Below the pieces are notes generated by a model. It had not been told where the DNA came from, ran no database searches, and worked only from the letters and a program-made list of their open reading frames with translations. Below are positions 22,291 through 48,585 of a stretch of 64,000 bases of DNA, one piece after another. The stretch's first letter is position 1; each line of letters opens with the position of its first letter. A program made the translations under genes and the position numbers. Source of the stretch: Mobula birostris (taxonomy: Eukaryota); assembly GCF_030028105.1 (NCBI RefSeq), contig NC_092376.1, positions 44,564,935 through 44,628,934 of the forward strand. The letters run 5' to 3'.

Positions 22291-22294
22291 GAGG

Positions 22295-23185: not shown

Positions 23186-24255
23186 TATTGTGATCCAGAA
23201 GGCTCTTCGGAAACCAAGAATGAGATTAAAAAAAGCTTAAGGTATAACAGTTTTATTAGGTGTTTACAACAAGAAAATAACAATAACTCAATCAACTATA
23301 AGGGAGAGATTAATTACACACGAACAAATGATTATATTAAAACAAGCACAAATAAAGTTAAACAACAAGAAAAATAACAATTTAGACAAATCCAACAATT
23401 TTAAATGATCCACAACATCCTGTTCAATGAAAATTCTGGCTTCTTCACTTGATGCAATAGACTTTAAAAATGTATTTTATGCTGCATAGGTATTTCTATA
23501 GAATAATTAATTCCTGAACGTAAAAGCTCTACTTGAGCTCCACTTGCATTGACTGTTGAGATACAAGTAGCCCTGAACAAATTATCTTTCCCAAAGATTC
23601 ATCATACAGAGTTGTAGATCCCGAGGTGATTAATCTGTGTTTTAAATTAAGCTGCAATTTATCAACAATATATTGTTCAAAAAAAGGTGGATATAATGGT
23701 CATGTCTTTTTGAATCAATTTCTTCTTACACTAAGCTGTGGAAATATCTCTTTGATGTTGGTAGATAGGTGATATTGTAGAACTCCATCAACATTTCTGG
23801 CAGAATGTCCATCCGAACTTCTAGACAATGTTTTTTCAAATAAATATGCAGTTTATCTTGATAATCTTCCTTGAGGTAAGCAGAAATAAATTCCCACTGT
23901 TTTGCCTTTGAGTTTCCTCTTTTTATGTTGCACAGAGGCCAACATTTTCTCTGGATTTTTAGCTTTACGAGACTCTCTGATTTCAATGTTATTGTTCTCC
24001 TTACTTGTCAGCTTCTGAGGATTCTACAATATTCACTGGTGGAGGTGAACCCATAAAATTTCTGAAAGATGATTTAACAAAGTTTGGAAGTCTCCTTATT
24101 TGATTGATGAACTTTTTCTTTACATTAAATTCTATTTTTTTTCAACATTGAGTGCATACAAGGAAATTGACTCATTGTTTTAACCATGGTGGAATCAGCT
24201 TTGGAGCAGTTGGAATGAATGCTTCAATTGAATTCTGACAAAAATATGATAAGGC

Positions 24256-26416
24256 CATAAGACAAAGGAGCAGAATTCGGCCATTCGGCCCATCAAGCCT
24301 GCTCTGCCATTTTATCATAAGCTGATCCATTCTCCCATTTAGTCTCATTCCCCCGCCTTCTCACCATAACCTCTTATGTCCTGGCTACTCAGATACCTGT
24401 CCATCTCTGCCTTAAATACACCCAATAACTTGGCCTCCACTGCCGCCCGTGGAAACAAATTCCATAGATTCACCACCCTCTGCTAAAAAAATTTCTTCGC
24501 ATCTCTGTTCTGAATAGGTGCCCTTCAATCCACAAGTCATGCCCTCTCGTACTAGACTCCTCCACCATGGGAAACAATTTTGCCACATCCACTCTGTCCA
24601 TACCATTCAACATTTGAAATGTTTCTATGAGGTCCCCCCCCCCCCCATTCTTCTAAACTCCAAGGAATACAGTCCAAGAGCTGACAAACGTTCCTCATAT
24701 GTTAACCCTCTCATTCCCGGAATCATTCTAGTGAATCTTCTCTGAACCCTCTCCAATGTCAGCACATCCTTTCTTAAATAAGGAGCCCAAAACTGCCCAC
24801 AGTACTCCAAGTGAGGTCTTACCAGTGCCTTATAGAGCTTCAACATCACATCCCTGCTCCTATACTCTATTCCTCTAGAAATGAATGCCAATATTGCATT
24901 TGCCTTCTTCACCACTGACTCAACCTGGAGGTTAACCTTAAGGGTATTCTGCACGAGGACTCCCAAGTCCCGTTGCATCTCAGAACTTTGAATTCTCTCC
25001 CTATTTAAATAATAGACTGCCCATTTATTTCTTTGACCAAAGTGCATAACCATACACTTCACAACATTGTATTTCATTTGCCACTTCTTTGCCCATTCTC
25101 CCAATCTATTGAAGACTCTCTGTTTCCTCAGCACTACCGGCCCCTCCACCTGTCTAGTGATTCTTGAAAGAGAATTACTAATGCCTCCATGATCTCTTCA
25201 GCTACCTCTTTCAGAACTCTGGGGTATATACAGTCTGGTCCAGGTGATTAATCTACCTTCAGACCTTACAGTTTCCCAAGAACCTTCTCTCTAGTTATGG
25301 TAACTTCACACTCTTAATGCCCCCAGACACTTTGAACTTCCACCATATTGCTAGTGTTTTTTACAGTGAAAATTGATGCAGAATACTTAGTCAGCTTGTC
25401 TGCTATTTTGTTGTCCCCCATTACTATCTCTCCAGCATCATTTTCCAGCAGGCAGATATCCATTCTTGCTTCTCTTTAACAATTAAAGTATCTGAAGAAA
25501 CTTTTGGTATTGTCTTTAATATTATTGGCTATTATTATTCATATTCCATCTTTACCTTCCTAATGACTTTTTTAGTTGCCTTCTGTTGGTTTTTAAAATC
25601 TTCCCAGTCCTCTAACTTCTCACTAATCTTTGCTCTGTTATATGCCCTCTCTCTGGCTTTTATGTTAGCTTTGACTTCTCTTGTTAGCCATGGTTGCATC
25701 ATCATTCCTTTGAATACTTCTTTCTCTTAGGGATGTGTGTATCCTGTGCCTTCCAAATTGCTTGCAGAAATTCCAGCCATTGCTGCTCTGTAGTCACCCC
25801 TGCCAGTGTTCTTTTCCAATCAGTTTTGGCCAGCTCCTCTCTCCTGCCTCTGTAATTCCCTTTACTCCACGGCAATACTGACACATCTGACTTTAACTTC
25901 TCCTTCTCAAATTTCAGGGTGAATTTGGTCATATTATGATCACTGCCCCTAAGGGTGCTTTTTCCTTAAGCTCTCTAATCAATTCTGGTTCATTGCACAA
26001 CACCCAATCCGGAATAGCTCATTCCCTAATGGGCTCAATCACAAATTGCTGTAAAAAGCTATCTCATAGGCACTCTAGAAATTCTCCCTCCTGGAATCCA
26101 GCACCATCCTGATTTTCCCAATCTACCTGCATATTGAAGTCCTCCATGACTATTATAACATTGGCCTTTTTGCAGGCATTTTCTATCTCCAGTTTTAATT
26201 TGTAGGCCACATCCTTACTACCGTTTGGGGGTCTGTATACAACTCCCATCAGGGTCTTTTTACCCTTGCAGTTCTTTAGCTCTATCCACAGTAGGACCAC
26301 AAGACCATGACATTGGAGCAGAATTAGGCCATTCAGCTCACTGAGTCTCCTCTGCTATTCCATCATGGCTGAATCCGGATCCCATTCAATCCCATACACC
26401 TGCCTTCTCACCATAA
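24256..26416 (-). mobile_element. CR1 LINE, internally deleted, plus an extra CR1 3' tail at 26320-26416
   Basis: ORF 24625-25149 (WAKKWQMKYN..LVRPHLEYCGQFWAP) and ORF 26064-26300 (GVVYRPPN..EDFN, endonuclease); RT core missing at ~25150. Confidence 0.9.
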
Positions 26417-26572
26417 CAGCATTTTGGACAGATTTATGATTGATTAGCTTCTTCATATTTAGCTCCAATATCTTCTTATGTTCCTATTTGTCAGCTCAGT
26501 TTACTAGACCATACACCACTGGCATAAATATGCTGACAGAGATGATTCAGGATAGTGTGAATGAACCAGAAA

Positions 26573-26605
<33 letters not shown>
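26573..26605. repeat. (TG)n(TA)n microsatellite
   Basis: tgtgtgtgtgtatatatatatatatatatatat. Confidence 0.95.
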
Positions 26606-27470
26606 GGAACAGCAACTATTGCTGTAAAGGACTGAAGTTTGAGTGCAGCTAGAGGAAAGGATCTTCAACAGAAACCTTTCCACCTTCAAAAAGAGAAAAA
26701 GAGACATTAAATGTAGAAATTACATCCGCAGATGAGCTCGAAGTAGCCACTCTGTAGCACCATCACGGTGCCTGCTCACTTGATGGAACAATAACAGAAT
26801 ATGCATGATATTGTGACTTTAGATGAGACTGCCTTGGTGTGTGAACAATATTATCTAAAGAGTACTCAACATCTAATATATTACTTGTGATTTTTCTCTT
26901 CACATATTCAATTTTTTTTTCATGTTTTACTGTAAGAATTCTCAACCCTCTTTTGTGCCATGGACCAATGCCATTAAGCCTGCGGTCTGTAGACCCTGGG
27001 CTGGGAAACCCTGTTCTACAGTTATGAATGGCAATTTATTGGGAACAACAGTTTCAATTCACTGAGAAGGAATCCACTTAAGTGATGGTGAAATGAGCAC
27101 CTCTATTGGTCTCTCAGCATTTGAGGATAAATGCTGGCTGCATTGTTTACTCTGTGTGATATTGCATTCAAGACAGCTTCTCATTGTTTTCATTATCCAA
27201 CTCCATACCAATGGGCTCTTTTTGAGCATCCTTTGCCATAGTTAAGATCACTGCTTGTGGAGTAATCATTCTTGCTGTTATTGCCAAGTTATTTGGATTT
27301 TCTCAGAAATGCAAAATTAGTTTGTTCTTTAAATTCTTTTCTAAGCAGCTAACAGCTTCCTCCTCAGTAAATGGTATATTCTGTGGTATTTGCCCCCAAC
27401 TCATTGTGCCAGAAGTAATAAAGCATAGGAGATGAATACTGCTAACGGATCCCTGTACATGAGGTGGAAT

Positions 27471-28148
27471 TTAGATAGTTAGATAGATATACTTTATCAA
27501 TCCTGAGGGAAATTTGGTTTCATTACAGCCGCACCAACCAAGAATAGAGAATAAATATAACAATACAAAAACCTCCAACAATCAAACAACAAAATGCAAA
27601 CTATGCCAGATGGAAAATAAGTCCAGGACTAGTCTATTGGCTCAGGGTGTCTGACTCTCCAAGGGAGGAGCTGCACGTTTGATGACCACAGGTAGGAACG
27701 ACCTCCCATGCCGCCAAGTGTTGTATCCCGGTGGAATGTGGCTGAAGTCCAACAGTAAACAGTTCAATATCCAGTCTGCAAACACATTCCTCGATCGTAA
27801 TATGCCCCGGTTTGCACCATCTGTTGTTAACCAGATCAGTAAGCACCCAACTCCTTTACGCTTACCGCTCTCAGTGCACTCCGGTATTACCCACCGAACT
27901 CCTCTTCTCCAAAAGTCTCTGTTGTCTCGACCCGGTCCTCTTTCCTCGGTTTTGTGATCCCCCTCTGCATCCTCTGTGTGTTTTCCTCCAGATTTCAGCA
28001 GGGGTGTCCGCCGCTCTGCTTGCTAAACCGGCCGGTATTTGCTGGTCCGTGGAATACACAATGTGACCTTGCTTCTGTCCCGCGTGGCGGGATGTAACTA
28101 TTTCCAGCGCTAAAGAAAACCCAAATAAAACTCTCTCTACCAGCATTT
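27471..28148 (-). mobile_element. Internally deleted Rex1/Babar-like LINE (5' region joined to 3' tail)
   Basis: Minus ORF ..HRGCRGG..QQRLLEKR precedes an endonuclease-like start; (tagat)n-type tail at 27472-27490. Confidence 0.6.
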
Positions 28149-28404
28149 GGACCTGTTTCTCAGCAATATACATTTCTGGTTCATTCACACTACCCTGAAT
28201 CATCTCTGTAGGCGTATTTATGCTGGTGCTGTAGAGTAAACAAAGCAGACGAATATTTTCATTGATCATTTTGCAGTTCTGCAGCATTCAGTTGTTGCAT
28301 ATTTTTAGTTTCGGTTAATTGAATAATCTCAATATTTCCATTTGCAATATCTTTTTCTTGCAGAACAGATTCAGCCTCTGTTTTTAATAACGTGTGTGTG
28401 AAGC

Positions 28405-29885
28405 ACATTAGGAACAGTTATTACCCCTCAGCCATCAGGCTGTTAAATCAAATGTATAATTTCATTTGCCCAATCACTGATCTTTTCCCACAACTTTGGA
28501 CTCACTTTCAAGGACTCTTCATCTCATGTTCTTGATATTTATTTATCTATATGCTACTAAAACTCTCATGCTCTGTTTGTCTGTTTGTGACCTCCAATTA
28601 GCGCAAATGGTACATTACAGTGGCATTATTTTTCGCTAAATCAACTTAAAATGCGCTAACTTACAGAATGCAGGCAAAGTTCAGTGTTATATCTTCATTA
28701 AAATTACTCACTCATCAAGATCAACAGCTATGAAAGCCGATGTCAGCCATGATGGAAACTGCGACGCACGGCCAGCCTCAGAAGCGACTCACGATGCTTG
28801 CAGCAGTGACACCAACTGGAGCAAAAGGGCAGAACAGCTCTATTTCGAGCAGTCACATTCTGCTTATCACCATCACCATGTGCAGGATTGGGACAGGTCA
28901 AACTGAGACCCATCAATAAGAGATAATTAAATCTTACTTTAGCGACGTACTTCGAGACAATCATAAAACCCTTTGCTGCAGTCAAAGGACAGCGGTGACT
29001 ATATCACGTCCATTTAGGAGAGCGCCAACCACATCATCAAGAATAATCAGCATCCTGGAGGCTTTGGTGTTACTGCGTTGTACCTTCTATCCAGCATTAG
29101 GGTAAAAAAAATGGTCAGCCTAATTATGCTGTGTGGAAAGAGAAGGGGGACATTATGGTCAAGATATGATGCCAAACATCATTGGGAAGCAGCAAGGAGA
29201 GGGAGAGAACAAGAATCGGATGAGGTCAGGGCCACACAACTCCAGGATCAAAGAGTCAAGACAAAAAAGATGAGAGAAGAAGAGACAGAGGAGGAGAGGC
29301 ATGCACGTCTCCAAAATGACAACAACTGGCATAGAAGGAGGAGAGAGGAAGAGACAAAGGAGCTGAGAAATGCACCTCTCCAGGATCAGAGACAAAGAAT
29401 AAACATCAGAAGAGATGAAGAGACGGTGGATGAAAGGACTGCACATCTCCAGAATGATGAAAGGCACACAGGTGCCATCAAAAGTGTCCTTCATTAAATG
29501 AGGAGGAGCTATAGTTGCCTTGCTACGCATCATCCTTCTTTAATAAATTGAGGTTTTCTTCTTCAATTTCCAAAGCAAAGTGATACCAATAGCATTCAGG
29601 AAAATCTAATGTTCATTCTGGTCACACCAGACTGCACTACCTTTCTCTCAAAGGGTGCCCCAACGGGTCACCCCATTGTCTAGTTATTATTATTTCTTTC
29701 TTTTTGTATTTGCATAGTTTATTATCTTTTGCACAATAGTTGAACTCCGAAATTGATGTGGTCTTTCATTGATTCTTTTATGGTTACCATTCTAGTATGG
29801 ATTTATTGAGTATGTATGCCTGAAAGAAAATGAATCTCGGGGTTTATATATGGTGACATATATTTACTTTGATAATAAATTTGCT
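28405..29885 (+). mobile_element. Rex1/Babar-like 3' tail split by the Helitron (28405-28545 and 29684-29885)
   Basis: ggaacagttattacccctcagccatcaggctgttaa...gatatttattta | ttattattatttc...gaaaatgaatctcgggg..tttgataataaattt, collinear with 2135-2490. Confidence 0.75.
28546..29683 (+). mobile_element. Non-autonomous Helitron (1138 bp)
   Basis: 5' A|TCtatatgctactaaaa; subterminal hairpin gggtgcccc-aac-gggtcaccc (29653-29673); 3' CTAG|T; no TSD; internal ORF 29078-29497 with ETEEERHARLQND-type repeats like RepHel N-termini. Confidence 0.85.
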
Positions 29886-31729
29886 TGAGATTCTTGATAT
29901 TCAGTTATGGTGTTTATTGACTCTGGGATAATCTATTATTTCTATGGCTTCATAGTTTTTCCCTTCTTCTTCAGTTGCTTTCGTTATTGATTTCACTTGA
30001 ACCTGAATTACTTGATTATGATACTGGAGAGTTTTCAACATCTAATGCCACTAGAGTAACATTCAATTTAAATGTTCTGTTTCCTACATAGTGCTGGATC
30101 AGCTGATAGTATTAGTTGACAAATTGCATTTTCTCTTTGCCAATCTTTATCAGTTCTTCCCTGATATTGTTTTGGCATTTCTCAACTTTTCAGCAAAAAT
30201 AGAAAAACTAATTGAACATTTTCTTTGGTCTGGAGTAATTCAATCTTGTTTTTTTTACTTTTTCTTGTGTCCATGGAGCAACTTCCTGAACAACTGGATG
30301 TGAGTGAAAATTGGTATTTTTCATCTGAGTGGTAGGTATCAGGAAGAAGAAATTGATTCTTTAACACAAACACCAAATAGCCCTCAGTATGGTGGTCACC
30401 AAAGTGGGTTTCTTTCCATGTGGTGCTATATCTCGATGTGCCCGATTTCCTTGTCCAATCATTTACTAGCATCAATACACTGTTCATCAGAACTTTTCTA
30501 TTCAACACTTATAGTTGTTGCTCATATTTCTTCCGAAGAAAATTGGTCAGGTGTGCTTGTTCCAACTAAAGTGTACTTATGAAGCAAATCTGCTTTTCAG
30601 GGTGTTTGTTTGGTGTCTAATAAGGCTAGACAGCCCATTCCCCAACTTTTAAGGCACCATATTTGGAATTATGACAGGAAATTGAAGTGGAGTTATTGTA
30701 GACTAATGTTTCAGATGTGAATCTGCCAAATTAATGAGCGATTGTTTTCTTACAACTTTCACAACCCAGATGATCAGGAAAATATTTATTGAAGGAACCT
30801 TCAGTTACTACTTTGTTTTCTTTCAGAGCTCCTTCAGCTTTTTTAGGCTTTTTGTTGACATAGGCTTGGATTTGCATGATGTTGATTTCTGTTTGTTTGC
30901 ACCATAGAATCAATACACAAAAATAGTTCTGTACCACTTTTCAATACAATATTTATAAATGAATGCCATGATCAATTCTTTGCCTAAGCACACATTTTAA
31001 AAGTGGAAATGTACAAATTAGCATGCTGTTACTGTTTCACTTTTGTAACATTTTCAGATCTTCATTCTGGAAAAGAAATCATGGTAGTCTTGTGATGGGT
31101 GAACTGAACAGTGCCTACTCTGTGTCACTGAAATGATACTCATGCTGCACTTCATCTGAATTGGCAAGCTGCCCAGACATTCCAGTGTTGGCGGATAGAT
31201 GGATATTTGGGTCGTGATATCATGTAGCTCTAACATACGTAAGTAAGTTTCGCTTATAATACTGGTGTCTCTTTTCACTGACCCTAATTCTAAAATTACA
31301 TTTTTCTTTGTTTCCATGAAGTTGATTTCTGAAAAGGCTACCCAGTTGCTGTGATATGAAACTGGACAGGTTAGTGCAACATGACAGGCAAGTGCTCAGC
31401 CATCAGCTCTTCAATGTGAAAACTGAGTACTTGAATGCCTACAGCATATTTACAACGGTAGGCTGCACACACTGACAGAGAAAAAATACTCCTGAAAAGA
31501 TACATTTATTCCAATCTGCCAGGACATGCTGAAAATGAGCAGCATCAAATGCATGTATAGATTGATAACTACTGCTCAAATTTACCTCTGAGCTCTGCTG
31601 AGCAAATACAGCTACAGCCTGTACACAGCTACACAGCTTCAATAATCCTTGATATTACACTGCTTTTCAGTGAGATTCCATGCAGTGTGAAGGTGTTTCC
31701 TACTTTTCTTTGCCACAAAGGACATTTCC

Positions 31730-33645
31730 TCAAATATAGCAGGCTCTTGCAAGAAACATAAGGTTGTGATAGTAGGAGATTTTAACTTTCCACATATTGA
31801 CTGGGACTCCCATATTGTAAAAGGACGAGATGGGATAGAGTTTGTCAAATCTGTTCAGGAAAGTTTCCTTAATCAGTACATGGAAGTCCCAATGAGAAAG
31901 TGTGTGATACTTGATCTGCTTTAGGGAATGACAGGACTGGTGATAAAAGTTTGTGTAGGGGATCACTTTACAACTAGTGATCACAATGCCATTAGTTTCA
32001 AAGTAAATATGCAAAAAAACAGGTCTGGTTTTTGGATTGAAATTCTAAATTGAAGAAAGACCAATTTTGATGGTATCAGAAGTATCTGGCAAGTGCCGAT
32101 TCGGATAGTCCTTCCAGATGAGGCAAAAGTTCGGCTGTGAGTCTGTTGGGGTCGCATATTGTGTCCAGCGCTCCCGGTGTGGCTTCCTGTGTATCGGTGA
32201 GACCTGACGTAGATTGGAAGATTGCTTCGTCAAGCACCTATGCTTCATCCTCAAGAAAAAGCGGGACCTCCCAGTGGCCACTCATTTTAATTCCACTTCC
32301 CATTTCCATTCTGATACGTCTATCCATGGCCTCCTCCACTGTCGTGATGAGGACACACTTAGGTTGGAGAAACAACACCTTACATTCACGTTTGGTAGCC
32401 TCCAACCCGATGACACAAACATCAATTTCTCAAACTTCCGGTAATGCACCCCACCTCTCCCCCACCCCCCACTTCACCATTTCCCATCCCCTTTTCCCTC
32501 TCTCACCTTATCTCCTTGCCCGCCCATCGCCTCCCTCTAGTGCTCCTCCTCCCTCTTCCTACTTCTGTGTCCTTCTCTCTCTTTCACCAATCAACATTGT
32601 AGCTCCTTACTTCATCCCTCTGCCTTCAGATTTCACCTATCACCTTGCGTTCCTCTCTCCCCTCCCCCACCTTTTAAATCTACTCCTCAGCTTCTTTTTT
32701 CTCCAGTCCTGCTGAAGGGTTTTGGCCCAAAACGCCAACTGTACTTTTTTTTTTTATATAGATTCTGCCTGCCCTGCTGAGTTCCTCCGGCATTTTGTGT
32801 ATGTTGTTTGGATTTCCAGCATCTGCAGATTTGCGAATTGGGACAGGTTGTTTTCTGGAAAGGTGTATTTGGCAGGTGAAATTTTTGAGAGCACAAAGCT
32901 TGTATGTGCCTTTCAGAATAAAAGGTAAAGATAACAAGGAACCTTAGTTTCTGAGAGATATTGAGGCCCTGGTTAAGAAAATGGGGATGCATTGCAGGTA
33001 TAGGCAAGTAGGAACAAGTGAGCTGCTTATGGAGTGTAAGAAATACAGGAAAACACCTAAGAAAGAAATCAGGAGGGCTGAAAGAAGGCATGTGGTTGCC
33101 TTACCAGACAAGGTTATAAAAAATCCTGAGGTCCTCGACAGCAATATTAAGAGTAAAAGGACTGCAAGGGACAAAATTGGTCCTCTGGAAGATCAGAGTG
33201 GTAATCAATGTGTGGAGCCAAAAGGTGGGGGAGATCTTAAATGAAATTTTTGCATATGTATTTACTCAGGAGATACATACACACACAGTCTATAGGAGTG
33301 AGGCAAAACGGCATCAACTTCATGGACTCTATACAAATTACAGAGGACGAGCTGTTTGCTGTCTGGAGTCTAATTATGGCAGATAAAACACCTGAGACTG
33401 ACAAGGTGTTCCCTCAGACCCTGTGGAGGAGTGCAGAAATTGCTGGGACTCTGGCAGAGATATTTAAAACATCCTTAGTGACAGGAGTTTTACCAGAGGA
33501 TTAGAAGATAGTCAATATTGTTCCACTGTTTAAGAAAAGCTCTAAAATTAAACCAGGAAATTATAGCTGCTGATCCTTACATCAGTCATGGGAAAGTTAT
33601 TGGAAGGTATTCCAAATGACCGGATATGTGAGTATTTGGACAGAC
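31730..33645 (+). mobile_element. CR1 ORF2 fragment interrupted by a Penelope-like element
   Basis: gtaggagattttaactttccacatattgactgg (VGDFNFPHIDW); ORFs 32981-33504 (KIGPLEDQSG, TGVLPED). Confidence 0.85.
32103..32833 (+). mobile_element. Penelope-like element 3' part (GIY-YIG endonuclease plus terminal repeat)
   Basis: CESVGV..YCVQRSRCGFLCIGET*RRLEDCFVKHL..LPVATHFN..RLEKQHL; pyrimidine-rich tail; terminal repeat with decayed hammerhead cagtcctgctgaagggttttggcccaaaacg. Confidence 0.85.
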
Positions 33646-35855: not shown

Positions 35856-36180
35856 CCGTGGACTGATTGAGGATAGTCCACATGGCTTTGTGTGTGGTAG
35901 GTCATGTCTAACCAATCTTATATACGGTAAACCTTTTTGAGGAAGTTACCAGGAAAGTTGATGAATGGGCAATGCAATGGATGTTGTCTGCATGGACTTC
36001 AGCAGGGCATTTGACAAGGTCCCACAAGGGAGGTTAGTCAAGAATGTTCAGTTGCTCAGCATTCACGATTAGTTAGTAAATTTTATTAGATATTGGATTT
36101 GTGGGAGAAGCCAGGAGGCCTGTGACTAGTGGAGTGCCACAGAGATCGGTGCTGGGTCCATTGTTGATTGTCATCTATGT
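35856..36180 (+). mobile_element. CR1 RT fragment
   Basis: gatagtccacatggctttgtg..ggtaggtcatgtctaacc..atggacttcagcagggcatttgacaaggtcc..actagtggagtgccacagagatcggtgctgggtcc. Confidence 0.85.
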
Positions 36181-37192
36181 CTCTATACATCTCTATCATC
36201 TGAGTGGACAGAGTCAGAGTGGTGATATTGAGCTTTAGCTTTACATGGACCAGCAAGAGAGGCTTCAGTCAGAGAAAACAAATATAAAAGCTCTAGGTTA
36301 AGTTTTTTTTATCCTTTTCTTCTTTATCCCTACTCAGCTAGGACAGTAGAGATGTCAGGCAGGATAGATGAATTGATCTCTTGTGGGATGTGGGAAGGCA
36401 GGGAGACCTCCAGTGTCCCTGATGACTGCAACTGTGAGAAGTACATCCAGCTGCAGCTCCTAACACTCCATGTTGAGGAGTTAGAGCTGGAACTGGATGA
36501 ACTCTGGATCATTCGGGAGGCTGAAGGGGTGATAGATAGGACATATAGAGAGGTAGTTACACCCGAGGTGCAGGAAGCAGGAAACTGGGTGACAGGCAGG
36601 AAGGGCAAAGGGGTTAAGGAGCCAGTGCAGAGTACCCCTGTGGCCATCTCCCTCAACAACAGATATATCACCTTGGATACTGTTGGGGGTGGGGTGGGGT
36701 TCATCTATCAGAGGAATGTGGCAGTGGTTGGGTCTCTGGAACTGAGTCTGGCTCCTTGACTCAGAAGGGAAGGTGGGACAAGGGGCATGCTGTGATGATA
36801 GGGTATCCGCTAGTTAGGGGAATGGACAGGAGGTTCCGTGGTCAAGAATGAGATTCCCGGATGGTACGTTGCCTCCTGGGTGCCAGGGTCCGGGACATCT
36901 CAGATTGAATCCTCAGCATTCTTAAGTGGGAGGTTGTGGTCCATGTAGGTAACATGTGTAGGACTAGTGATGAGGTTCTGCATCAGGAGTTCAGGGAGTT
37001 AGGTGCTAAGTTAAAGGTCAGAACATCCAGGATAGTGATCTCAGGACTGCCACCCATGCCATGTGCTAGTGAGGCTAGAACTAAGAAGATTATACAGTTT
37101 GATATGTACCTAAGGAGTTTGTGTAGGAGGGAGAGCATAAGGTTTTTGGATCATTGGGCTCCCTTCAGGGAAAGTGGGACCTGTACAGAAGG

Positions 37193-37600
37193 CCCAATGC
37201 CCTGCTAATGCCCCGCCTCCCCCTCGTACCCCATCCGTTATTTATATACACACATTCTTTCTCTCACTCTCCTTTTTCTCCCTCTGTCCCTCTGACTATA
37301 CCCCTTGCCCATCCTCTGGGATTTCGCCCCACTCCCCTTTTCCTTCTCCCTGGGCCTCCTGTCCCATGATCCTCTCGTATCCCTTTTGCCAATCACCTGT
37401 CCAGCTCTTGGCTCCATCCCTCTCCCTCCTGTCTTCTCCTATCATTTTGGATCTCCCCCCCCCCCCCACTTTCAAATCTCTTACTAGCTCTTCCTTCAGT
37501 TAGTCCTGATGAAGGGTCTCGGCCTGAAACGTTGACTGTACCTCTTCCTAGAGATGCTGCCTGACCTGCTGCGTTCACCAGCAACTTTGATGTGTGTTGC
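37193..37600 (+). mobile_element. Penelope-like element 3' tail with terminal repeat
   Basis: Pyrimidine-rich tail closely similar to 44535-44935, ending in the hammerhead-bearing repeat. Confidence 0.8.
37501..37538 (+). ncRNA. Minimal type I hammerhead ribozyme motif (intact core)
   Basis: Stem I AGUC (37502-37505) pairs with GACU (37534-37537); core CUGAUGA (37506-37512); stem II AGG-gucucgg-CCU; GAAA (37526-37529); minimal palindromic stem III ACGU; NUH site GUU, cleavage after 37533. Confidence 0.75.
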
Positions 37601-37845
37601 CTGTACAGAAGGGACAGTTTACACATGAACTAGAGGGGTTCTATTCTCCTGGCAGGAAGGTTTGTTAATGCTGCACGGTGGGGTTTAAATTGATGTTGCA
37701 GGAGGATGGGAACCAGAATGCCAGTGGAGAGGTTGTGGAGGCAAATGTTGGTAAGACCTCAGACAAAGTCAGGAATCAAAAAGTTGAACATGGTGTGACT
37801 AGTGTGCTGAGCTGTGTATATTTCAATGCAAGAGGTATCACAGGA

Positions 37846-38070
37846 AACAAGAGAAAATCTGCAGATGCTGGAAATCAGAGCAACACACACAAAATGCTGG
37901 AGGAGCTCAGCAGGCCAGGCAACATCTCTGGGAAAATAAGTACAGTCGACATTTCGAGCCGAAACCCTTCCACCAGTCTGGAGAAAAAGGGCTGAGGAGT
38001 AGATTTGAAAGGTGGGGGAGGGGAGAGAGAACCGCCAGGTGATAGTTGAAACTTGGAGGGGGAGGGATGA
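37846..38070 (-). repeat. Penelope-associated repeat and tail
   Basis: aaatctgcagatgctggaaatc..acacacaaaatgctggaggagctcagcaggccaggc..cagtcgacatttcgagccgaaacccttc. Confidence 0.8.
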
Positions 38071-40264
38071 AGCAATGGTGTATGCGCACAATTCACACAT
38101 TCTATTGCAACATATATCAAGTTAAATATTAAAATATTAAATATCTAATGCCATAGCAACAGGCTGTAATTGATAGTATGCTCATATAGTTAAGAATGCT
38201 GCTTGTGGAGTAATCACTCCTGCTGACTTTGCTAAGCTATTTGTATATTCCCAGGGATGCAAAGTTATTCTATCCTTTTAATTCATCATACGCACTTAAC
38301 AGCTTCTTCCTTAATAAATGGTACACTCTGTGGAATTTGCCTCTGACTCCTTGTATCAGAAGATTCAAAACTAGTTGAAAATTTTTGGAAAAGGTTGTGA
38401 ATACTGCTAACTGATCCTTGAACAGGAGATTGTATTTGGACCTGTTCCTCAGCAATTTACATTTCCAGTTCATTCATACTATTCTGTATAAACTCTGAAG
38501 GCATATTTATGCCTGTGGTGCATGGTCTAGTAAACAGAGCTGACGAATATTGTTTATTGTCCACTTTCCTTTGCAGTTCTCCAGCGTTCATATGTTCAGT
38601 TTTGGTTAATTGAAAGATCTATTATTCCCATTTGCAATATCATTTTCTTTCAGAACAGATTCAACCTCTTTCGAAAATTTCCAACTTTAATTCTATCAAT
38701 TGTAAATGTGATTGAACCTTGTCACTGGGCTGAAGTAACTCAATTTTTTTTTAACATACCGTTATTTGTATGTCAATGGAGCATATTCCAGAGTGAAAAT
38801 TTGTAGTTTTCACCAATGTGTATTTTTCATCTGAGTGGTTGGTATCAGGGAGAAAGAATTTATTCTTTAACTCAGACACCAAATACTTCTCAGTATCATG
38901 CCTATGATATTGAGATTCTTTCCACATGGTGCCACTTCTTGATGTATCTGATTTTTTTTGTCTGAATATTTTGTTCTAACTGAAGTGTACTTGCTGAGCA
39001 AATCCACCCTTAAGGGTGTTTGTCTGGGGTTGATGATGCTAGACAGACCTTTTCCCCACCTTTTAAAGCACTATGTTCAGAAGTGTTATGGGAAATTGTT
39101 CATGTAGATTAATTTTTCAGATGTGACTGTACTGAATGAATGAGCGGATGTTTTCTTGCAACATTCACAACCCAGATGATCAGGAAAAGATTTCTCAAAG
39201 GAACCTTCTCTTAAGTCTTTGTTTTCATTCAGAGCTTCTTTGGCTTTTCAGATTTTGTATTAATAAAGGCTTGAGTTGCATGATGTTGTTTTCTGTTTGG
39301 TTGAAACACAATAATTAATTCTATACTACTTCCCAATACGTTCAGTACATCTAAAAGAAACTGCCACAGTCAAGTCTTTGCCATAAGCACACATTTTAAA
39401 AGTGCAAGTTTACAAGTGAGTCGGCTGTTACCATTTCACCTCTGTAAAATATTTCCAGATATTCATTTAGTAACTGTAATCTTATGGTGGGTGAACTGAA
39501 TAGTGCCTGTTCTGTGTCACTAGAATGATGCTGATTCTGCACCTCATCTGAATTGGCAAGCTGCCCAGACATTCCAATGTTGGTGGATAGATGGAAATTT
39601 AGGTCAGAATATCATGTAGCTGTAACAATAGATTCACTTTTAAAGCTGTTGTATCTTTTCACTATTTTGTTTCCATGAAGTTGATTTCTGAAAAGGCTAC
39701 CCAACTGCTGTGATATGGAACTTGACAGGTTAGTCCAACATGACAGGCAAGTGATCAGCCATCAGTCCTTCAATGTGAAAACTGAACACTTGAATGCCTA
39801 CAGCATATTTACAATGGTAGGCTGCACACACTGACAGAGAAAAAATATTCCTGAAAAGATAAATTTATTCCAATCTGACAGGGCACAATGGAAACTGACA
39901 GGGATTCTGAACGAGTGGGCAGCATCAGATGCATATACAGATGAATAACAATAGCTCAAGTTCACTCTGAGCTCTGCTGAACAAACACAGCTACAGCCTG
40001 AACACAGCTATAAAAATTCAACCATCTTTGATATTACACTGTTTTCCAATGAGTTTCCACATAGTATGAAGAAGTTTCCCAATTTTCCTCAGCAGAACCT
40101 TTTGCCTGATGTTTTACCCACTCACTTTAACTTTCTCTAACTAACTTGTAGCGCCTTCATCCCAAACGTTAACAACTTACTTTCTTAGCAATCTTCATGT
40201 CATCAGCTAATTTAACACCAACATCTTTGGCCCCTTCATCCAACTCAGTTGTGTAACCGTAGAA

Positions 40265-40510
40265 AGTTTATTTATTTACTTACTGAGCCAGTGCAGAATA
40301 GGCCCTCCCAGTCCTTCGAGCCTCACCGCCAAGCAATTCCTCCAATTTAACCTTAGCCTAATCACGGGACAATTTACAATGACCGGTACGTCTTTGGACC
40401 GAGGGAGGAAACTGGAGCGCTTGGAGGGAACCTACATGGCCACAGGGAGAATGTACAGGTAGCGGTGGGAATTGAACCCTTCGCCTATACTGTGCTAACC
40501 ACTACCCTAC
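40265..40510 (-). mobile_element. V-SINE-like element
   Basis: cgtctttggaccgagggaggaaactggagcgcttggagggaacctacatggccacagggagaatgtaca (reverse V-domain) and tgtgctaaccactac. Confidence 0.65.
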
Positions 40511-40582
40511 CTTGGAAATGCACACACAAAATTGTGAGGAACTTAGCAAGTCATGTAGCATCTGTGAAGGAGAATAAACAGG

Positions 40583-40936
40583 TGTAATGCCCTGGTTAAG
40601 ATTTCTACCATAATGCTGTAGATATTTCATTTTAACAGTTTCTGCAGAAGGAGTATGCCCTGCTGGTAGAATGTTTTAGCTTCGGCTAACGATGAGGAAC
40701 CCTGCTGCTCAATTTAGGAATGTTGTGTTAGCCAATTAGGATGGCAGAATCGGGAGAAAGTTCTAGAGAGTGGGACGGAAAGAGATTTGTGATGGACGGT
40801 AGTCTGGGATCTTTTGGGCAGGAGCTGCAGAAAGGACAGGAGGGAAGATGGCTGAGGATGCTGGGGGAAGGAGTGTCCCTGTTACACAAAGTGCTTTGTG
40901 CAGATGAATGGCTCCAAGGAGGAAGGGCCAATACTC

Positions 40937-40983
<47 letters not shown>

Positions 40984-41451
40984 TGTTTGCTTGAGATGGA
41001 TTTCAAGCGAAACTCAGAATGTGGTGTGTACTTTCATGCAGACCGTGGGTCCAGCACGAGTGAAAATACAACTTCACAATGAGCTCCAATTTCATGTGCA
41101 CATTTGGACTGGTCTAAGCGTAATGGGCTTTTTTGTCCTTTTCTTTTTCTTACTAACTCTTTGCTAAAGCTGAAATTTGTAAATACACTTCCTTTATAAT
41201 TTTATGTGGTGTACGATTTGTTATTTCTTGCGACTTATTAGTGTGTATGGGTAGAATTTACACAGCATTCGCTGAAATTGAGGTTTCTTTAATCAGAACA
41301 TCACAATATTCCTGTTTGGTTGAACCCAAATCATCCTGATCTTAGACAAATATTGATTATGAAAGGTGGCCTTCTCATTGCTGAGTCCCTTGGCTGTTAG
41401 CAAAGACGGCTAGTGAGCCAAGTTTGCATATGAGCGCGGTGCGGGGTTACA
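40583..41451. mobile_element. Solo LTR
   Basis: Termini TGTAAtgccc...ggggTTACA; flanking 4-mers cagg/caag (near-perfect TSD); cleanly interrupts the host repeat. Confidence 0.75.
40939..40981. repeat. (GA)n microsatellite within the LTR
   Basis: About 21 uninterrupted GA units. Confidence 0.97.
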
Positions 41452-42070
41452 CAAGCAAGGTTTTGACCCCAGATCCCTCATCAGGACTGGAAAGGAATGG
41501 GGCGAAAGCCAGAACGAGAAAGTTGGGGAAGAAGCAGGACAATAAGCTGGCAGGTGATAGGTAAGATCAGGTGAGGGGAGGAGGAGGGGATGAAGTAAGA
41601 AGCTTGTGGTGATAGGTGGAAGAGGGAAAGGGCTGAAGAGGGAATCTAATAGGAGAGGACAGTGGATCATAATGTAAAGGGAAGGACAAGGGGAGCCAGT
41701 GGAATGTGATAGGTAGCTGAGGCGAAGGGAAGAGGTGAGAGGTAATCAGAGTGGGCCATGGAAAAAGAGAGAAAGGAGTAGTAGGGGTGGAATTAGAGAA
41801 ACCCATGTACATACCAGCAGGTTGGAGTTACCCAGACAGAATATGCAGTGATGCTCCTCCAACCTGGCTTGAGCCTCATCATGGCAGAAGCGGAAGCCAC
41901 AGATAGACATGCCGGTATGGGAATAGGAAGTCAAATTGAAATAATCGACCATAGGTGGCTGTTTATTGCCCTCCATAGATGCCAGCTGACTTGATGAGTT
42001 CCTCCAGCATGTTGTATGTGTTGCTGGACATTTCCAGCAAACGCAGAATCTCTTATGCTTATGAAAGATG

Positions 42071-42169
42071 AGACACTTGGATTCACTCTACAGCACAGCA
42101 CTTAAGTGTATCCTTTCCTGGTTGTTAAGATGCACTAAGTGCTGTGCTGTAGAGTGAATCCAAGTGTCT
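42071..42169. repeat. Perfect 34-bp inverted repeat (hairpin)
   Basis: agacacttggattcactctacagcacagcactta (42071-42104) versus taagtgctgtgctgtagagtgaatccaagtgtct (42136-42169). Confidence 0.95.
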
Positions 42170-42342
42170 GTTTCCTGGTCGCCAGCCAAACATCTATCCA
42201 TGCCATTAGATCAACTTTGATGTGGCTCTTTGTTAGAAGCCTTGTAGAAATCCAGGGAGAGTAAATCCACTGACTCCTGTATCAGTAGTTCACGTTACTC
42301 AAAAGAGCTACAATATGCTGGTTAAATATTATCTCAGTTTCA

Positions 42343-42500
42343 CAACAACACACACAAAATGCTGGAGGAACTCAGCAGATCAGGCAGCGTCTATGGAAAA
42401 GAGTAGACAGTCGACATTTTGAGCTGAGACTCTTCATAGGACTGGAACGGAAGGGGGAAGAAGCCAGAATAAGAATGTGAGGTAGGCGAAGGACGATAGC
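42343..42500 (-). repeat. Penelope-associated repeat with a hammerhead remnant
   Basis: Reverse complement reads ccagtcctatgaaGAGtctcagCTCaaaatgtcgactg. Confidence 0.8.
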
Positions 42501-42548
42501 CAGAGGGTAATTTCACAACATAGAGCAGAAGAAAGCACTGGGTCCTGC

Positions 42549-42788
42549 TGTAGGGTAATGTAATTAGTGGAAACGTACATAATTCACAGCCACCCACATT
42601 GGTTTGGGGCTCACTTTAAAAACCTGATCTGACGTGATGCCATAATTACGTAAAATACTTTTACCGACGTGATGCCATAATTACGTAAAGTACTTTCACC
42701 ATGCAGTGTTTGGAGTACAATAAATGAGTTGCTATGGTTTTCCTTAAACATAAAATGCCTCTGCCGTTTTTATTCGTGAAAACCTACA
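42549..42788 (+). mobile_element. Short solo-LTR-like element with an internal 35-bp tandem duplication
   Basis: Ends TGTAGG...CCTACA; AATAAA near 42719; gacgtgatgccataattacgtaaa twice at 42631-42700; no clear TSD. Confidence 0.5.
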
Positions 42789-42794
42789 TTACTA

Positions 42795-43667
42795 CCCAGT
42801 GAAGCTGCATTATAGCCTAGAGTGTTTGATGAAAGCCACCAAAAATGTTCCCTGTGCCTCTGGCTGCAACACAAGCCCAAGGCATGATTGATCCATTCCC
42901 ATGCTTAACAGTTGGAGAGAGGTTCTTTTCATGAAATTCTGCACCCTTTTTTCTCCAAACATACCTTTACTCATTGCGGCCAAAAAGTTTTATTTTAACT
43001 TCATCAGTCCACAGGACTTGTTTCCAAAGTGCATCAGGCTTGTTTAGATGTTCCTTTGAACCATTTGAATAGAACATTTACTGGTAGAGGGAAGAATGAA
43101 TTCAATTAAATACCAGCAAATTCTGGAAGCAACCATCACACTGTCTGTAAAAAAAAAAAGCCAAAGTTGAAAAGAGGATAGCTTCTACAATAGGATAATG
43201 AACCTAAACACACCTCAAAATCCACAATCGACTACCCCAAGAGGTGCAAGCTGAAGGTTTTGCCATGGCCCTCACAGTCCCCTGACCTAAACATCATCCA
43301 GAATCTGTGGATAGACCTCAAAAGAGCAGTGCATGCAAGATGGCCCAAGAATCTCACAGAACTAGAAACCTTTTGCAAGGAAGAATGGACAAAAATCCCC
43401 CAAACAAGAATTGAAAGACTCTTAGCTGGCCACAGAAAGCGTTTACAAGCTGTGATACTTGAAAAAGGGGGTGTTACTAAGTACCGCCATGCAGGGTGAC
43501 CAAACTTTTGCTTCGGTCCCTTTTCCTTTTTTTGTTATTTTGAAACTGTAAAAGATGGAAATAAAAAAGTTTTCTTGCTTAAAATATTAAAGAAATGTGT
43601 CATATTTAGCCTTATGCCTTTAGGAAATATATATATGTGTGTGTGCCTAAGACTTTTGGACAGTACT
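42795..43667. mobile_element. Rearranged Tc1 DNA transposon remnant
   Basis: Minus 42840-43055: LWTDEVKIKLFG..PTVKHG..IMPWAC. Plus 43070-43490: EGRMNSIKYQQILE..DNEPKHTS..WPSQSPDLNIIQNLW. TIR-like end tgcctaagacttttggacagtact. Confidence 0.85.
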
Positions 43668-43739
43668 TTACAAGAAATCGAAACTCATTTTTTCCATTTC
43701 TTTTAGAAGTGGACACTTACTTTGAGCAATAAAAGATGT

Positions 43740-46035
43740 TGACTGTTCTTTTTTTTGTCCAGCTTCAAGGTGCAATTAATTAAAGTGGGCCTGGTCAATC
43801 CTCTTTTAATTGCTCTTGTGTGTCATCCACCAAAAATACATACTCGATTTTTGGACTTCCCCTCAAACACTATGCCCAGACTGAGTTCTGATTTTTGGTG
43901 ATTTTAATATTCATGTTTGTTGTCCCGCTAAGCCTCTCGTAAGTGATTTTATGCATCCGGTTGAGTCTTTTAATCTTGCTCTGCTTATTACTGGACCCAC
44001 TCAGAAGCAAGGCCATACACTGGGATGTGGCATTAAAATGTGTGGCCACTGGAGATCCTGCTTCCTCTGGTGGACAGAGCATTGGTGTTCAGTGAAGTGG
44101 TCTCCCAGTCTGCGTCGGGTCTCACCAATATATAGAAGGCCACACCGGACACAGTATATCACACCAGCCCTTACACTTCCTCCCTCACCACCATTCAGGG
44201 CCCCAGACAGTCCTTCTAGGTGAGGCAACACTTCACCTATGAATCGGCTGGTGTGATATACTGCATCCGGTGCTCCCGATGCGGCCTTCTATATATTGGT
44301 GAGACCCAACGCAGATTGGGAGACTGCGTCACTGAACACCTACGCTCCAGAGGAAGCAGGATCTCCCCATGGCCACACATTTTAATTCCACGTTCCATTC
44401 GCATTCCGATATGTCAATCCACAGCCTCCTCTACCGTCGAGATAAAGCCACACTCAGGTTGGAGGAACAGCACCTTATATTCCATCTGGGTAGCCTCCAA
44501 CCTGATGGCATGAACATTGACTTCTCTAACTTCCGCTAATGCCCCTCCTCCCCTTCTTACCCCATCCCTATTTTATTTATTTATTTATTTTCCTCTCTTC
44601 TCCTCTCATATTAACTCCTTGTCTGTTCTCCATCTTCCGCTGGTGCTCCCCTCCCCCTTTCTTTCTTCCAAGGCCTTCCATCCCATGATACTCCCCCTTC
44701 TCCAGCCTTGTATCCCCTTTTTCTAATCAACTTCCCAGCTCTTGGCTTCATCCCCTCCCCCTCCTGTCTTCTCCTATCATTTTGGATCTCCCCTCCCCCT
44801 CCCACTTTCAAATCTCTTACTATCTCTTTTTTCAATTAGTCCTGACAAAAGGTTCTCGACCCAAAACATCGAATATACTTCTTCCTATAGATGCTGCCTG
44901 GCCTGCTGCGTTCCACCAGCATTTTGTGTGTGTTCCCATTCTTTTCTCTATATATATGCCTCCCCTCGGCCAAATCATTCAAAAATATGACATTTCTTTT
45001 CACTGTTATGCTGACAACGCACAGCTTTATCTCCCCCGAAACCAAACGACCAGTCAAATCTAGCCAGCCTCATGAACTGCCTTGAGGACATAAAGTGTTG
45101 GATGGCACAAAACTTCTTACAGCTGAATGAAGGCAAGTCTGAAGTTGTCCTATTTGGCCCCCCTGACTCCATCAAAGTGATTACCAACAGTCTTGGTAAC
45201 CTGTCCACCCTTTCCAAACCCCATGTCAAAAACCTTGGTGTGATACTTGATTCCACCTTTAAGTTTGACAAGCAAGTTAATGCAGTAGTAAAAGCCAGCT
45301 TTTTCCAGCTTCATACTATTGCCAAAATCAAGCAGTTTCTCTCTTTCAAAGATCTCGAGAAAGTCATCCACGCCCTTATATCTTCCCGCTTGGACTACTC
45401 CAACTCCCTGTATACTGGGATTAGTCAGTCGCCCCTGTCCCGCCTGCAACTGATCCAGAATGCCGCAGCCAGGCTCCTGATAGGTGCCCGGAAGAAGGAC
45501 CATATTACTCCTATCCTGGCCTCCCTCCTCTGGCTGCCAGTACAGTTCAGAATTGATTTTAAGATCCTCCTGTTTGTTTATAAAGCCCTAAATGGGCTGC
45601 CCTCCCCCATATCACAGACCTTCTAACCCCTTATTCTACTTCTAGGTCCCTCAGGTTGGCTGACTTGGGGCTCCTGGCTGTCCCGCGATCAAAATTTAAG
45701 TTCAAGGGTGACTGCACCTTTGCTATTGTAGCCCCTAGACAGTGGAACAGCATTCCCCTCCCAATCAGATCTTCCTCCTCCATCGACTCTTTTAAATCCA
45801 GGCTCAAAACTTACTTTTGTTCACTAGCGTTTGAATCCTCCTGATGTGGCTGATTTTTGGCTTGTGCCTAGGCCCTTGTGTTGTGTCTTTTGTGCCTATA
45901 AGCTGTTTGCTTTGTTGGTTAAATCTGTGTTTCTTGTATTTGTGATTTTAGCTATCTGCTCTGATCTGTACAGCACTTTGGTCAACTTGGGTTGTTTTTA
46001 AATGTGCTATATAAATAAATTTGACTTGACTTGAC
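43740..46035 (+). mobile_element. L2-clade LINE (endonuclease 43740-43995; RT C-terminus 44935-45840) interrupted by a Penelope-like element
   Basis: GDFNIHV..GPTQKQGHTL; HCYADNAQLY; CLEDIKCWMAQNFLQLNEGKSEV..SRLDYSNSL..HITPILASLLWLP; (ttgac)n tail at 46021-46035. Confidence 0.9.
44020..44935 (+). mobile_element. Penelope-like element with an inverted 5' segment
   Basis: Plus strand FTYESAGVIYCIRCSRCGLLYIGETQRRLGD (GIY-YIG); minus 44020-44170 is an inverted copy GVIYCVRCGLLYIGETRRRLGDHFTEH; terminal repeat at 44836-44935. Confidence 0.9.
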
Positions 46036-48026
46036 ATTTTTCCATAGATGCTGTCTGGCCTGCTAAGTTCCTCCAGCATTTTGTGTGTGTTGCATTCTGC
46101 AGATTTTCTCTTTGTAATAAATATTGCGTTTGCTTTTGTAGAAGAGCTGGGAAATATCATTTCTCATTTTCGGCACAATCTCTGATGTTTCATTAGCAAG
46201 CACAGGAGAAATGTTGAAGTTGTCAGTATATCAGATGCTTTTTATACACTGAAGAGGGTTGAAAAACACATTGGTCAGATATTTCATTCATGCCAAAGTT
46301 GTTGTTAATTCTAGTTTCCCAATGTCTTTGAATCATCTTTCAATTGTCTTGCTCTTCATCAAAAGAGCACTAAAAATAAACAAGTACTTCACATTTATCC
46401 AAGCAAATTAAAAATGAACTTGCAATTCAGCAACAGTAACTACCTATGAAATTTAACGAACAATATCATTTCCGTACAGCTTTCCGTAGAAAGAGGGCAT
46501 AGTGTATGCATGCAATTCACACATTCCATTGCAGTGTATATCTAGTTAAATATTAAAATCACAAAGTTATTACATTCACTTCAATATGCACTAAAGGATT
46601 TTACTGCAGTTATGTCTACAGGCAGGAACAGTTGTAAAAATGTCAGTATCAATCTCTAATTTCAATAACATCAGAATGTGAGCATATTGTCAAAAATATT
46701 AGCTGAGAAATTACCTCTTGTAGTTGCAATATAATACCATATTAATTATTCTGCTCTAATTTTACCAAAAGCATATATGCAATAATATACCAGAACTGTC
46801 TCTTAGTGACACAAACAACATCATGAAACCTCTTGAGTCGGGTGGAAGGTACATGCATTTGTATTGGAAAAGTTCCCATATCCCCTAAAACAAATATGCT
46901 ATGTGCTTTCCATATGCCAGTCAGCCTCCAAATATCATAACTGATAATTCAGCTACTTCAGTACTTAATTCCTTGACAAATAGGTTTAATCTGCATTGCT
47001 ACCTCAGACTTTTCTTTGCACTTAGAAGGGAAATAAGTTTCCCAGTGTTAGGTATATTTGTATTTTGAACTGTGAAATGAAGTATCAACCCTTCTCAGAA
47101 AAATGGTAACTGCATTGAAGTGAAACCTCAAACCTTCAATAGAAATGATAATCAACACTTTCTGGGGAAGAAGAGGAACTCTGAAATGACCCTTTCCACC
47201 TTCTCCAATATAAAACCATCAATGCCTTTGCTCACATAACCTTTTTATTTCTTCTAGTATTTCTCTCTCAACTCCCTCTACTCCCCTTTTCAGTTCCTAT
47301 TATCTCCCCATTCGCCAACTTAAATGTCACAATTTCTTATTTCTGATGACACAGATGGAAGGTACATCAAAACCTAGCTTAGATTACATTTCAAGTCTAC
47401 AAATACTTCCTCCTATATCACACATTTCACAAATATACCCTTACACAGACATAGAATAGATTCCATGGAAATACGTGTGGACAACGGGGCAAAGCTTTGA
47501 GCAGCATCCAGTTGAACCTTCTGGAACCTTAAGCCAAAGCAGGGACCTCCTTTCAGTTTGAACAGTGATCTGCCTCATAGGAAACAGTGCTGACAAAACC
47601 GTTGTGCTTTATAAGTTCAGAGGTTCTTCCATTGCCCAGAGGGAAATAATTGTGTGGACAACACAATACGTTTTTTGACAGTTATTACAGATGCAAGACG
47701 TTTAAGATGCAGGGAGGACAACTGATACCTTTTACAGATCACTGGTTACATACCAATGAGAAGAATGTGTATGGCACACTTTTTTTTCCTTTACCTAATA
47801 TTTGAATTCAATATTTAAACAAAATAGGGTCCCATCTAGCTTACTAAGTGTCTCTCTTTTAAGGACAAGATGTACAGGTATTGCTCCAAATGAACAGTAT
47901 GACATTTTTATAATATAAAAAAATTATAAAATGTTTTATAATATAAAATTTACAATGCTATATATGATGACTTTAGAGCAAAATGTTACATATTTGAGTT
48001 GAAGTTTATAGCTAAGCTGGGAGGTG

Positions 48027-48297: not shown

Positions 48298-48585
48298 ATG
48301 ATCTTGGCCCTGCTTGAGCTATTTGGACTGCAGCAGGAGATAGGCGCTCCTAGCATATAGAGGATTGTCTAGCCTTTGCCCAAACCTCACTTCCACAATG
48401 TGATCTGCGATTTAATATCACTCCTCTAGGTCACCAACCTGGGCATTGCGACATTAGTGCACACGGCTTGCTTCCTCGCCGTGCCCTTTGTATGTCCGAT
48501 GCAGTACTTTCACTGGAGTAGGAGGTGGACGGTGACGCCTCCAAATGCAGACGGATCAGAGTGTCATCAGTCACGGTGTGACCAG
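48298..48585 (+). pseudogene. Putative first exon of a decayed plus-strand gene
   Basis: accATG start and 96 codons in one frame up to a consensus phase-0 donor CAG|GTGAGT; three in-frame TAG; hydrophobic VTNLGIATLVHTACFLAVPFVC followed by WSRRW. Confidence 0.45.

Follow-up and report, generated by a model that had tools for sequence, protein, structure and literature searches.

Described relatives of the gene considered here include the mammalian SPATA31 and FAM205 genes, for which three sources give the following picture. SPATA31/FAM205-type genes are listed as testis- or reproductive-tract-specific (PMC7436996). They have short first exons and one long coding exon, the fourth in mammalian SPATA31, and have been duplicated repeatedly, leaving pseudogenes (PMC5338094). 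FAM205A is acrosomal, is a predicted transmembrane protein and carries a DUF4599 domain and two FAM75 domains, and both Spata31 and Fam205a1 knockouts are infertile (PMC13423385). We analysed a 64,000-nucleotide stretch of the genome of the ray Mobula birostris (assembly GCF_030028105.1, contig NC_092376.1, positions 44,564,935 to 44,628,934), hereafter the window. In it, an original prediction made from the DNA letters had placed one hidden dead gene with a large exon on the minus strand at 23385..46830, with repeated motifs like those of SPATA31 and CCDC168. We found that this region is very probably a dead, partly duplicated FAM75-domain repeat gene, whose intact relatives are likely anchored in the membrane at their N-terminus and likely act in sperm, like mammalian SPATA31/FAM205.

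The fish family described below shares with mammalian SPATA31/FAM205A the FAM75 domain and local duplication with pseudogenes (PMC5338094 and PMC13423385), and a membrane helix is predicted at the N-terminus of FAM205A as well as in the first exon of the window gene. Compared by published description, the mammalian proteins have ~1,300 amino acids (aa) and one or two FAM75 domains plus DUF4599 (FAM205A), whereas the fish proteins carry a long tandem array.

The dead copies match giant repeat proteins of jawed fishes

The window is transposon-rich vertebrate DNA. Self-comparison revealed related tracts that are 71-78% alike and correspond to two dead gene copies on the minus strand, instead of the single gene predicted: copy A (tract 31708-23396, in four islands) and copy B (tract 40087-38152). 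Their coding remnants amount to ~4.0 kb within 23.4 kb.

One frame of 24250-23320, with its stops written as X, was used as the query for a full HMMER search of 1.84 billion representatives (E<=0.001). Seven proteins were matched, all of the same family (best E=7.6e-38), all unnamed and mostly 2,400-5,100 aa long; they came from catshark, elephant shark, little skate, sturgeon, coelacanth and electric ray (two). A search with two skate repeat units, word-limited and spanning proteins of 2547-8105 aa, returned 13 proteins; new among them were four from squamates, of which two bear the names SPATA31F1 and FAM205A, as well as proteins of sawshark and another catshark and a further skate paralogue encoded on the contig of the first. 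The comparison with shark and ray proteins that had been proposed at the outset was productive, with matches from cartilaginous fishes, sturgeon and coelacanth. Two word-based protein searches, limited to proteins of 507-2000 and 825-2625 aa, returned nothing, because most homologues fall outside those sizes. The homologues include the paralogues LOC129698331 (XP_055493389.1) and LOC129698430, which share a contig in the skate Leucoraja erinacea; Scyliorhinus canicula LOC119977343, S. torazame XP_072332423.1 and Callorhinchus LOC103177415; a Pristiophorus cluster with several 'X1' isoforms and one member named 'SPATA31F1-like'; two Narcine proteins on one contig; Latimeria LOC106703202; and Acipenser FKN15_013083. 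The matches from cartilaginous fishes came from six species only, and no stingray, carpet shark or mackerel shark protein was among them; gene losses, short gene models or the limits of the search may explain this.

The window copy is 44% identical to the skate protein P0012 and 39-41% identical to the shark proteins, with an overall range of 39-45%. Like the fish homologues, the window is collinear in N-terminus, linker and repeat units, has a helix in exon 1 and is tandemly duplicated at the locus; unlike the window, the homologues have open reading frames that reach 5,253 aa.

Intact relatives in jawed fishes have ~4,600-5,250 residues. A repeat profile built from 118 units has 230 positions and recurs every ~290 residues, as a 230-aa core followed by a linker of ~60 aa. 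The full models of sharks and skates contain 11-13 near-complete units, the coelacanth protein 9, the sturgeon protein 18 and the squamate proteins 4-6. The order of parts is an N-terminal hydrophobic segment, a Cys/Lys-rich stretch, a low-complexity region, the units and a non-repeat tail, and one main N-terminal hydrophobic segment (hydropathy 1.9-2.8) was present in eight of the nine homologues tested. Each unit core contains four similar sub-motifs, two of them with a well-kept W-G-L-P. An AlphaFold model of a 665-aa homologue gave a ~19-residue helix and a short helix for each sub-motif and no global fold; with low confidence, the sub-motifs could form helix-turn-helix pairs that are centred on W-G-L-P and strung along a flexible chain. 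Units at an exact period and with equal scores were seen in sturgeon (271 aa) and Narcine (294 aa) (P0004 and P0007), a regularity that points either to recent homogenisation of the array or to an artefact of assembly.

The profile built from the repeats of the homologues demonstrated that the recurring motif is real: its best match in the window scored 53 bits, compared with 0.3 bits in the reversed region and a maximum of 4.7 bits in shuffles (n=20). All five peptides quoted with the prediction were found, each on the minus strand and between 26912 and 23628:

26912-26856, minus strand: IEYVKRKI...YSL
26468-26436, minus strand: LELNMKKLINH
24243-24196, minus strand: FCQNSIEAFIPTAPKL
24135-24037, minus strand: IEFNVKKKF...PPP
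23663-23628, minus strand: DKLQLNLKHRLI

LELNMKKLINH and FCQNSIEAFIPTAPKL had been joined into one motif. Both halves are real, but they lie 2.2 kb apart across a block of long interspersed nuclear element (LINE) sequence and match different parts of the unit (profile positions 192-211, then 149-230); the joined motif is therefore a deletion chimera.

The coding signal from the window alone was weak. The islands are rich in S, N, E and K as described (S+N+E+K 0.32 in both copies, 0.33 in a skate homologue and 0.26 in SACS). The claim of sparse stops held marginally, with depletion in the minus-strand islands at p=0.02-0.24, but one of eight control strand tests also reached p=0.02. When leave-one-out profiles were made for six motifs, the left-out motif ranked first in one case of six (E=0.12).

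Membership in the FAM75-domain family

FAM75 (Pfam PF14650) was present in all 14 homologues scanned, at 53-568 bits against a cut-off of 24, and precomputed PF14650 annotation was found on all 13 proteins from the skate-unit search. The domain occurs up to 17 times in the giant fish proteins. In homologue P0002 it covers aa 615-734, or about unit positions 104-223, roughly the second half of the unit, and the window matches this FAM75-bearing part at 24255-24042 (unit positions 149-230, 53 bits) and at 27205-27013 (positions 124-195, 28.9 bits).

We compared the fish unit with that of squamate SPATA31F1/FAM205A, and the two aligned with an HHalign probability of 100 (E=1.7e-43, 228 columns). 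'Protein SPATA31F1' of Paroedura picta (XP_077202497.1) and 'protein FAM205A' of Crotalus tigris (XP_039211334.1) carry the 230-aa unit end to end, as the fish proteins do. These squamate proteins have 3,200-4,200 aa, an N-terminal hydrophobic helix and 11-12 FAM75 stretches; in comparison with the fish proteins they are 25-28% identical, have 4-5 near-complete units and show weak DUF4599 matches, which are sub-threshold in three of the four squamate proteins. The window gene is accordingly homologous, and not merely analogous, to SPATA31/FAM205, by way of database homologues that carry FAM75 and of a unit collinear with that of squamate SPATA31F1/FAM205A. For the 665-aa homologue, FAM75 clusters also came out on top in the ESM Atlas, at 0.85, as a lead only. 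Judged by sequence comparison, the window gene is best filed as a putative member of the FAM75-domain family and not as a SPATA31/FAM205A orthologue. Sharks, skates, coelacanth and lizards have this repeat gene intact, and its FAM75 domain is found in mammalian SPATA31/FAM205 as well, so the origin of the family likely dates back to the first jawed vertebrates.

CCDC168 is a very large gene. It is listed as a reproductive-tract gene in PMC7436996. This second label in the prediction received no support: no protein of that name was among the 13 matches of the word-limited search (2547-8105 aa), and the scans contained no CCDC168 Pfam family.

Anatomy of copies A and B

The large exon of copy A occupies 30984-23396 on the minus strand, with ~45% identity to the skate protein and most repeats gone. 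In a frameshift-aware alignment it is collinear with skate P0012 aa 5-821 (45% of 533 aligned) and then jumps to P0012 aa 1590-1881 (44% of 266). About 770 residues are missing at this jump, where a small inverted duplicate, an orphan sub-motif and a LINE block are located. Some 940 codons of the large exon remain, broken and rearranged, while copy B keeps the 5' part only and ends at 38152:

29903..30984, minus strand: copy A N-terminal non-repeat region; found by tblastn (to E=1e-20, queries from sawshark, skate and catshark) and by frameshift-aware alignment
28144..28392, minus strand: copy A island between two insertions; 59% over 46 aa to skate P0012 (E=3e-5), 78% to copy B in nucleotides
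27013..27460, minus strand: copy A first repeat unit, in degenerate form; 42.5 and 28.9 bits with the repeat profile; P0012 aa 627-788, E=5e-24
26826..26945, minus strand: copy A end of first unit, with the IEYVKRKI motif; P0012 aa 781-821, 49%
26485..26575, plus strand: small inverted duplicate of the coding stretch 28170-28255; 81-85% to both copies
26435..26489, minus strand: lone head of the fourth sub-motif (LELNMKKLINH); profile 192-211, 8.3 bits, E=0.045
24256..26420, minus strand: LINE block at the deletion junction; multicopy in the window, weak endonuclease match (E=0.0056)
23440..24255, minus strand: copy A second half of unit 4, linker and first half of unit 5 (skate numbering); 53, 42 and 37 bits; 44% over 266 to P0012
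23396..23503, minus strand: copy A last fragment (FIEQDVVDHLKL), belonging to the first half of a later unit; 42% identical to P0013 over 45 columns (E=8e-4)
38152..39383, minus strand: copy B, 415 codons from the 5' part of the large exon, reaching the start of repeat 1; profile matches to E=2e-20, frameshift-aware path

The inverted duplicate matches catshark P0001 aa 911-943 on the plus strand (E=0.001). The LINE block, which we take to be CR1-like, is flanked by a possible decayed target-site duplication in which 12 of 18 letters are alike. Nothing of the remaining ~2,900 residues (further units and the C-terminal tail) was found after 23396 before SACS, 19000-23230 gave no match, and the profile of the C-terminal tail matched the window only where it overlaps a repeat.

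The insertions at 28400-29890 and 27460-28140 in the large exon had no Pfam match; the former, presumably Helitron-like, contains a 159-aa Arg/Glu-rich frame and a 120-base-pair (bp) internal repeat. The stretch 26605-26826 beside the small inversion had no homologue match on either strand. A D-H-L-G-C-E-x-C motif at 30775-30740 and 39181-39146 is kept in both dead copies, and shark homologues carry the matching cysteine motif as C-D-x-H/x-G/R-C.

First exon and introns

Both copies lie inside the predicted range, but its end at 46830 was too short, as the gene reaches an exon at 48298-48585. The features of the 5' side are as follows:

48298..48585, plus strand (opposite to the rest): first coding exon; ATG, 96 codons, hydrophobic helix, phase-0 GT donor, three stops
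46260..46369, minus strand: weak candidate second exon; AG acceptor; joined to the end of exon 1 it would give C-x-x-C, phase 0
46499..46559, minus strand: intron-1 stretch with a second occurrence at 38135-38075, just past copy B; 85% over 61 bp, E=4e-12
39384..40087, minus strand: copy B upstream non-coding stretch, likely intron; aligns to 31708-30990, no protein match
30985..31708, minus strand: copy A upstream non-coding stretch, likely intron; ends TTAG and includes a 219-bp block

The first exon was matched by the N-terminal profile of the homologues (E=1.5e-5 and 2.1e-6) and is 33% identical to the N-terminus of S. torazame over 87 columns (E=2e-5); its hydropathy is 1.99 over 19 aa. 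The candidate second exon reached only E=0.19-0.26 with the profile. Exon 1 with its donor and the long exon, apart from its insertions, are thus seen, and exon 2 is weak. The repeated 61-bp stretch (46559-46499) lies upstream of candidate exon 2 and marks a duplication or deletion junction. In the upstream stretch of copy B, stops common to both copies occur in every frame in the three longest blocks. The 219-bp non-coding block (31526-31308 / 39885-39667) is 93% identical between A and B, compared with 70-82% in its flanks, and had no Rfam or protein match; it could be a conserved regulatory element or the result of gene conversion.

Decay and history of the two copies

Stops and frameshifts occur in copies A and B, and stops in the first exon, so the gene is dead, as predicted, and the locus cannot encode a full protein. 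Copy A has 15 stops and 13 frameshifts in total, with 10 and 9 in the 632 codons of its 5' part and 5 and 4 in its 3' part (23440..24255); copy B has 5 stops and 7 frameshifts in 415 codons. We built a tree from 322 columns and 8 rows, without elephant shark, sturgeon, coelacanth, squamates and the short Narcine model. The results showed that copies A and B are sisters (99.9/100), and Narcine received no firm placement. Orthology of A and B each to one skate paralogue was rejected by the approximately unbiased test (p<1e-4), and on this tree the skate pair is a separate duplication. The ratio of nonsynonymous to synonymous substitution rates (dN/dS) between A and B was 0.94 (0.67-1.38) for the 282 of 396 codon pairs used after an identity filter, and the 10 stops seen since the duplication lie within the 8.5-10.5 expected under neutral decay.

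Eight other organisms carry part of island A1. In four relatives copy A shows divergences of ~1.6%, 5.5%, 6.9% and 7.5%, each of them also has a contig with copy-B-type gaps, and the islands stand near single-copy depth. Full gap accounting was possible in the relatives X5 and X11 only; all gap letters were accounted for there and none fell at 30641, 30451, 30330 or 30081, indicating that these four frameshifts are common to the window and these two relatives. A 4-base deletion at 30603 is extra in X11 and X17, and the stop at 30461, absent from X10, X11 and X17, is therefore younger. Because both copies are found in the four relatives and are broken where this could be checked, the gene loss is old. 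The copy likely died long ago, and we infer that it did so at about the time of the A/B duplication. With disabling lesions, introns, neutral decay and lesions common to relatives, the window copy is an unprocessed pseudogene.

Weighing the explanations

According to the explanation that we prefer, the reading frame would have been lost at about the time when the 5' part was duplicated in tandem; deletions would afterwards have removed most units, an inversion would have flipped exon 1, and transposons would have split the large exon. Several observations weigh against this explanation or its details. A direct FAM75 profile match, the check proposed at the outset, was obtained in none of 40 read-through stretches of the window frames (0/18, 0/18 and 0/4), so that membership is transitive; single units score far below whole proteins for FAM75, and the window fragments are short and broken. 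Neither exon 1 nor any of the 10 fish proteins scanned had a match to DUF4599 (PF15371). The fish C-D-H-x-G-C-x-C motif, present in both window copies, aligned with the DUF4599-like cysteine motif of squamate N-termini only at E=0.15. The AlphaFold model is poor (predicted local distance difference test 38.8, predicted template modelling score 0.17), candidate exon 2 was not significant by BLAST, and a dN/dS near 1 is little informative in a fast-evolving region. A and B have no stop in common over 396 codon pairs. A further frameshift considered as shared (30451/38951) was discarded, because there a run of A is one base longer in one copy than in the other.

The absence of shared stops favours a history in which A and B were once complete, working tandem genes that died separately, a deletion then fusing the large exon of B to the first intron of A. 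The same junction would result, and an independent tandem pair stays intact in skate. However, one frameshift near 30885/39289 appears common to A and B and moves both copies alike relative to the homologues, dN/dS is ~1, and judging from the number of stops any functional phase would have been short; we regard separate deaths as possible but the weaker account. For the exon 1 on the opposite strand, an inversion is the simplest reading. It is unlikely, though conceivable, that the exon at 48298 was never inverted and instead starts a third, head-to-head copy running rightward past the window, as a surviving gene or a further dead one. Such duplication is frequent in this gene (two paralogues in skate and two proteins in Narcine, each pair on one contig, and several 'X1' isoforms in sawshark), inversion breakpoints were not identified, and the sole long inverted pair on either side of exon 1, at 44382-44487 and 48859-48964 (76%), belongs to a dispersed repeat. 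The three stops in exon 1, however, mean that it cannot start a live protein, no later plus-strand exon was found from 48586 to 64000, the end of exon 1 fits candidate exon 2 in phase at a distance of 1.9 kb, and the N-terminal profile found no exon 1 on the minus strand.

The region is mostly transposon DNA and its internal statistics are weak, as would be expected if the islands were remnants of transposons or endogenous viruses or chance look-alikes, the outcome that the original prediction had named as fatal to it. This origin was refuted by the homologue matches, the collinear alignment and the profile controls: the islands match host proteins collinearly at 44-45% over ~800 residues, a spliced first exon is present, controls reached at most 4.7 bits against 53, and depth in relatives is near single-copy. 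We consider it to have almost no chance of being right, and the original prediction of a hidden dead gene of the FAM75/SPATA31 kind is supported.

Possible function and significance

The ancestral product would have been a long membrane-tethered, multivalent scaffold. It would act in spermatids, at the acrosome or the Sertoli-cell junction, a role proposed only because of the mammalian relatives and by analogy with them.

The pseudogene itself represents ordinary decay. The locus points to unnoticed giant proteins in sharks, skates, sturgeon and coelacanth that stand in databases as 'uncharacterized' and from which the complete repeat unit of the family, studied in mammals, is defined. No paper on giant fish FAM75 proteins was found by identifiers or by SPATA31 plus shark, and this form appears undescribed in the literature searched, which covers few subscription journals. 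Tentatively, and with more doubt than confidence, SPATA31/FAM205 may derive from a jawed-vertebrate ancestor as a giant membrane-tethered array of the 230-aa unit, FAM75 being part of that unit, the mammalian proteins being shrunken and this locus having been the sole copy in a whole ray lineage. If this is true, that lineage is a natural knockout for a class of genes without which male mice are infertile, and if the lineage has no intact copy, it offers a test of the gene's need for fertilisation outside mammals.

Neighbouring gene SACS

An Rfam scan of 19000-49000 gave no matches, and Pfam on the window frames gave nothing relevant. SGCG is presumably the tail-to-tail neighbour of SACS in mammals; no sarcoglycan-gamma exon was seen by eye in the minus-strand translation of 46830-64000. 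The dead FAM75-type gene on the minus strand has SACS, on the plus strand, as its convergent neighbour:

7344..18914, plus strand: SACS large exon, intact; 3,856-aa open reading frame with Sacsin (E=1e-155), HEPN and weak DnaJ matches, given as context only

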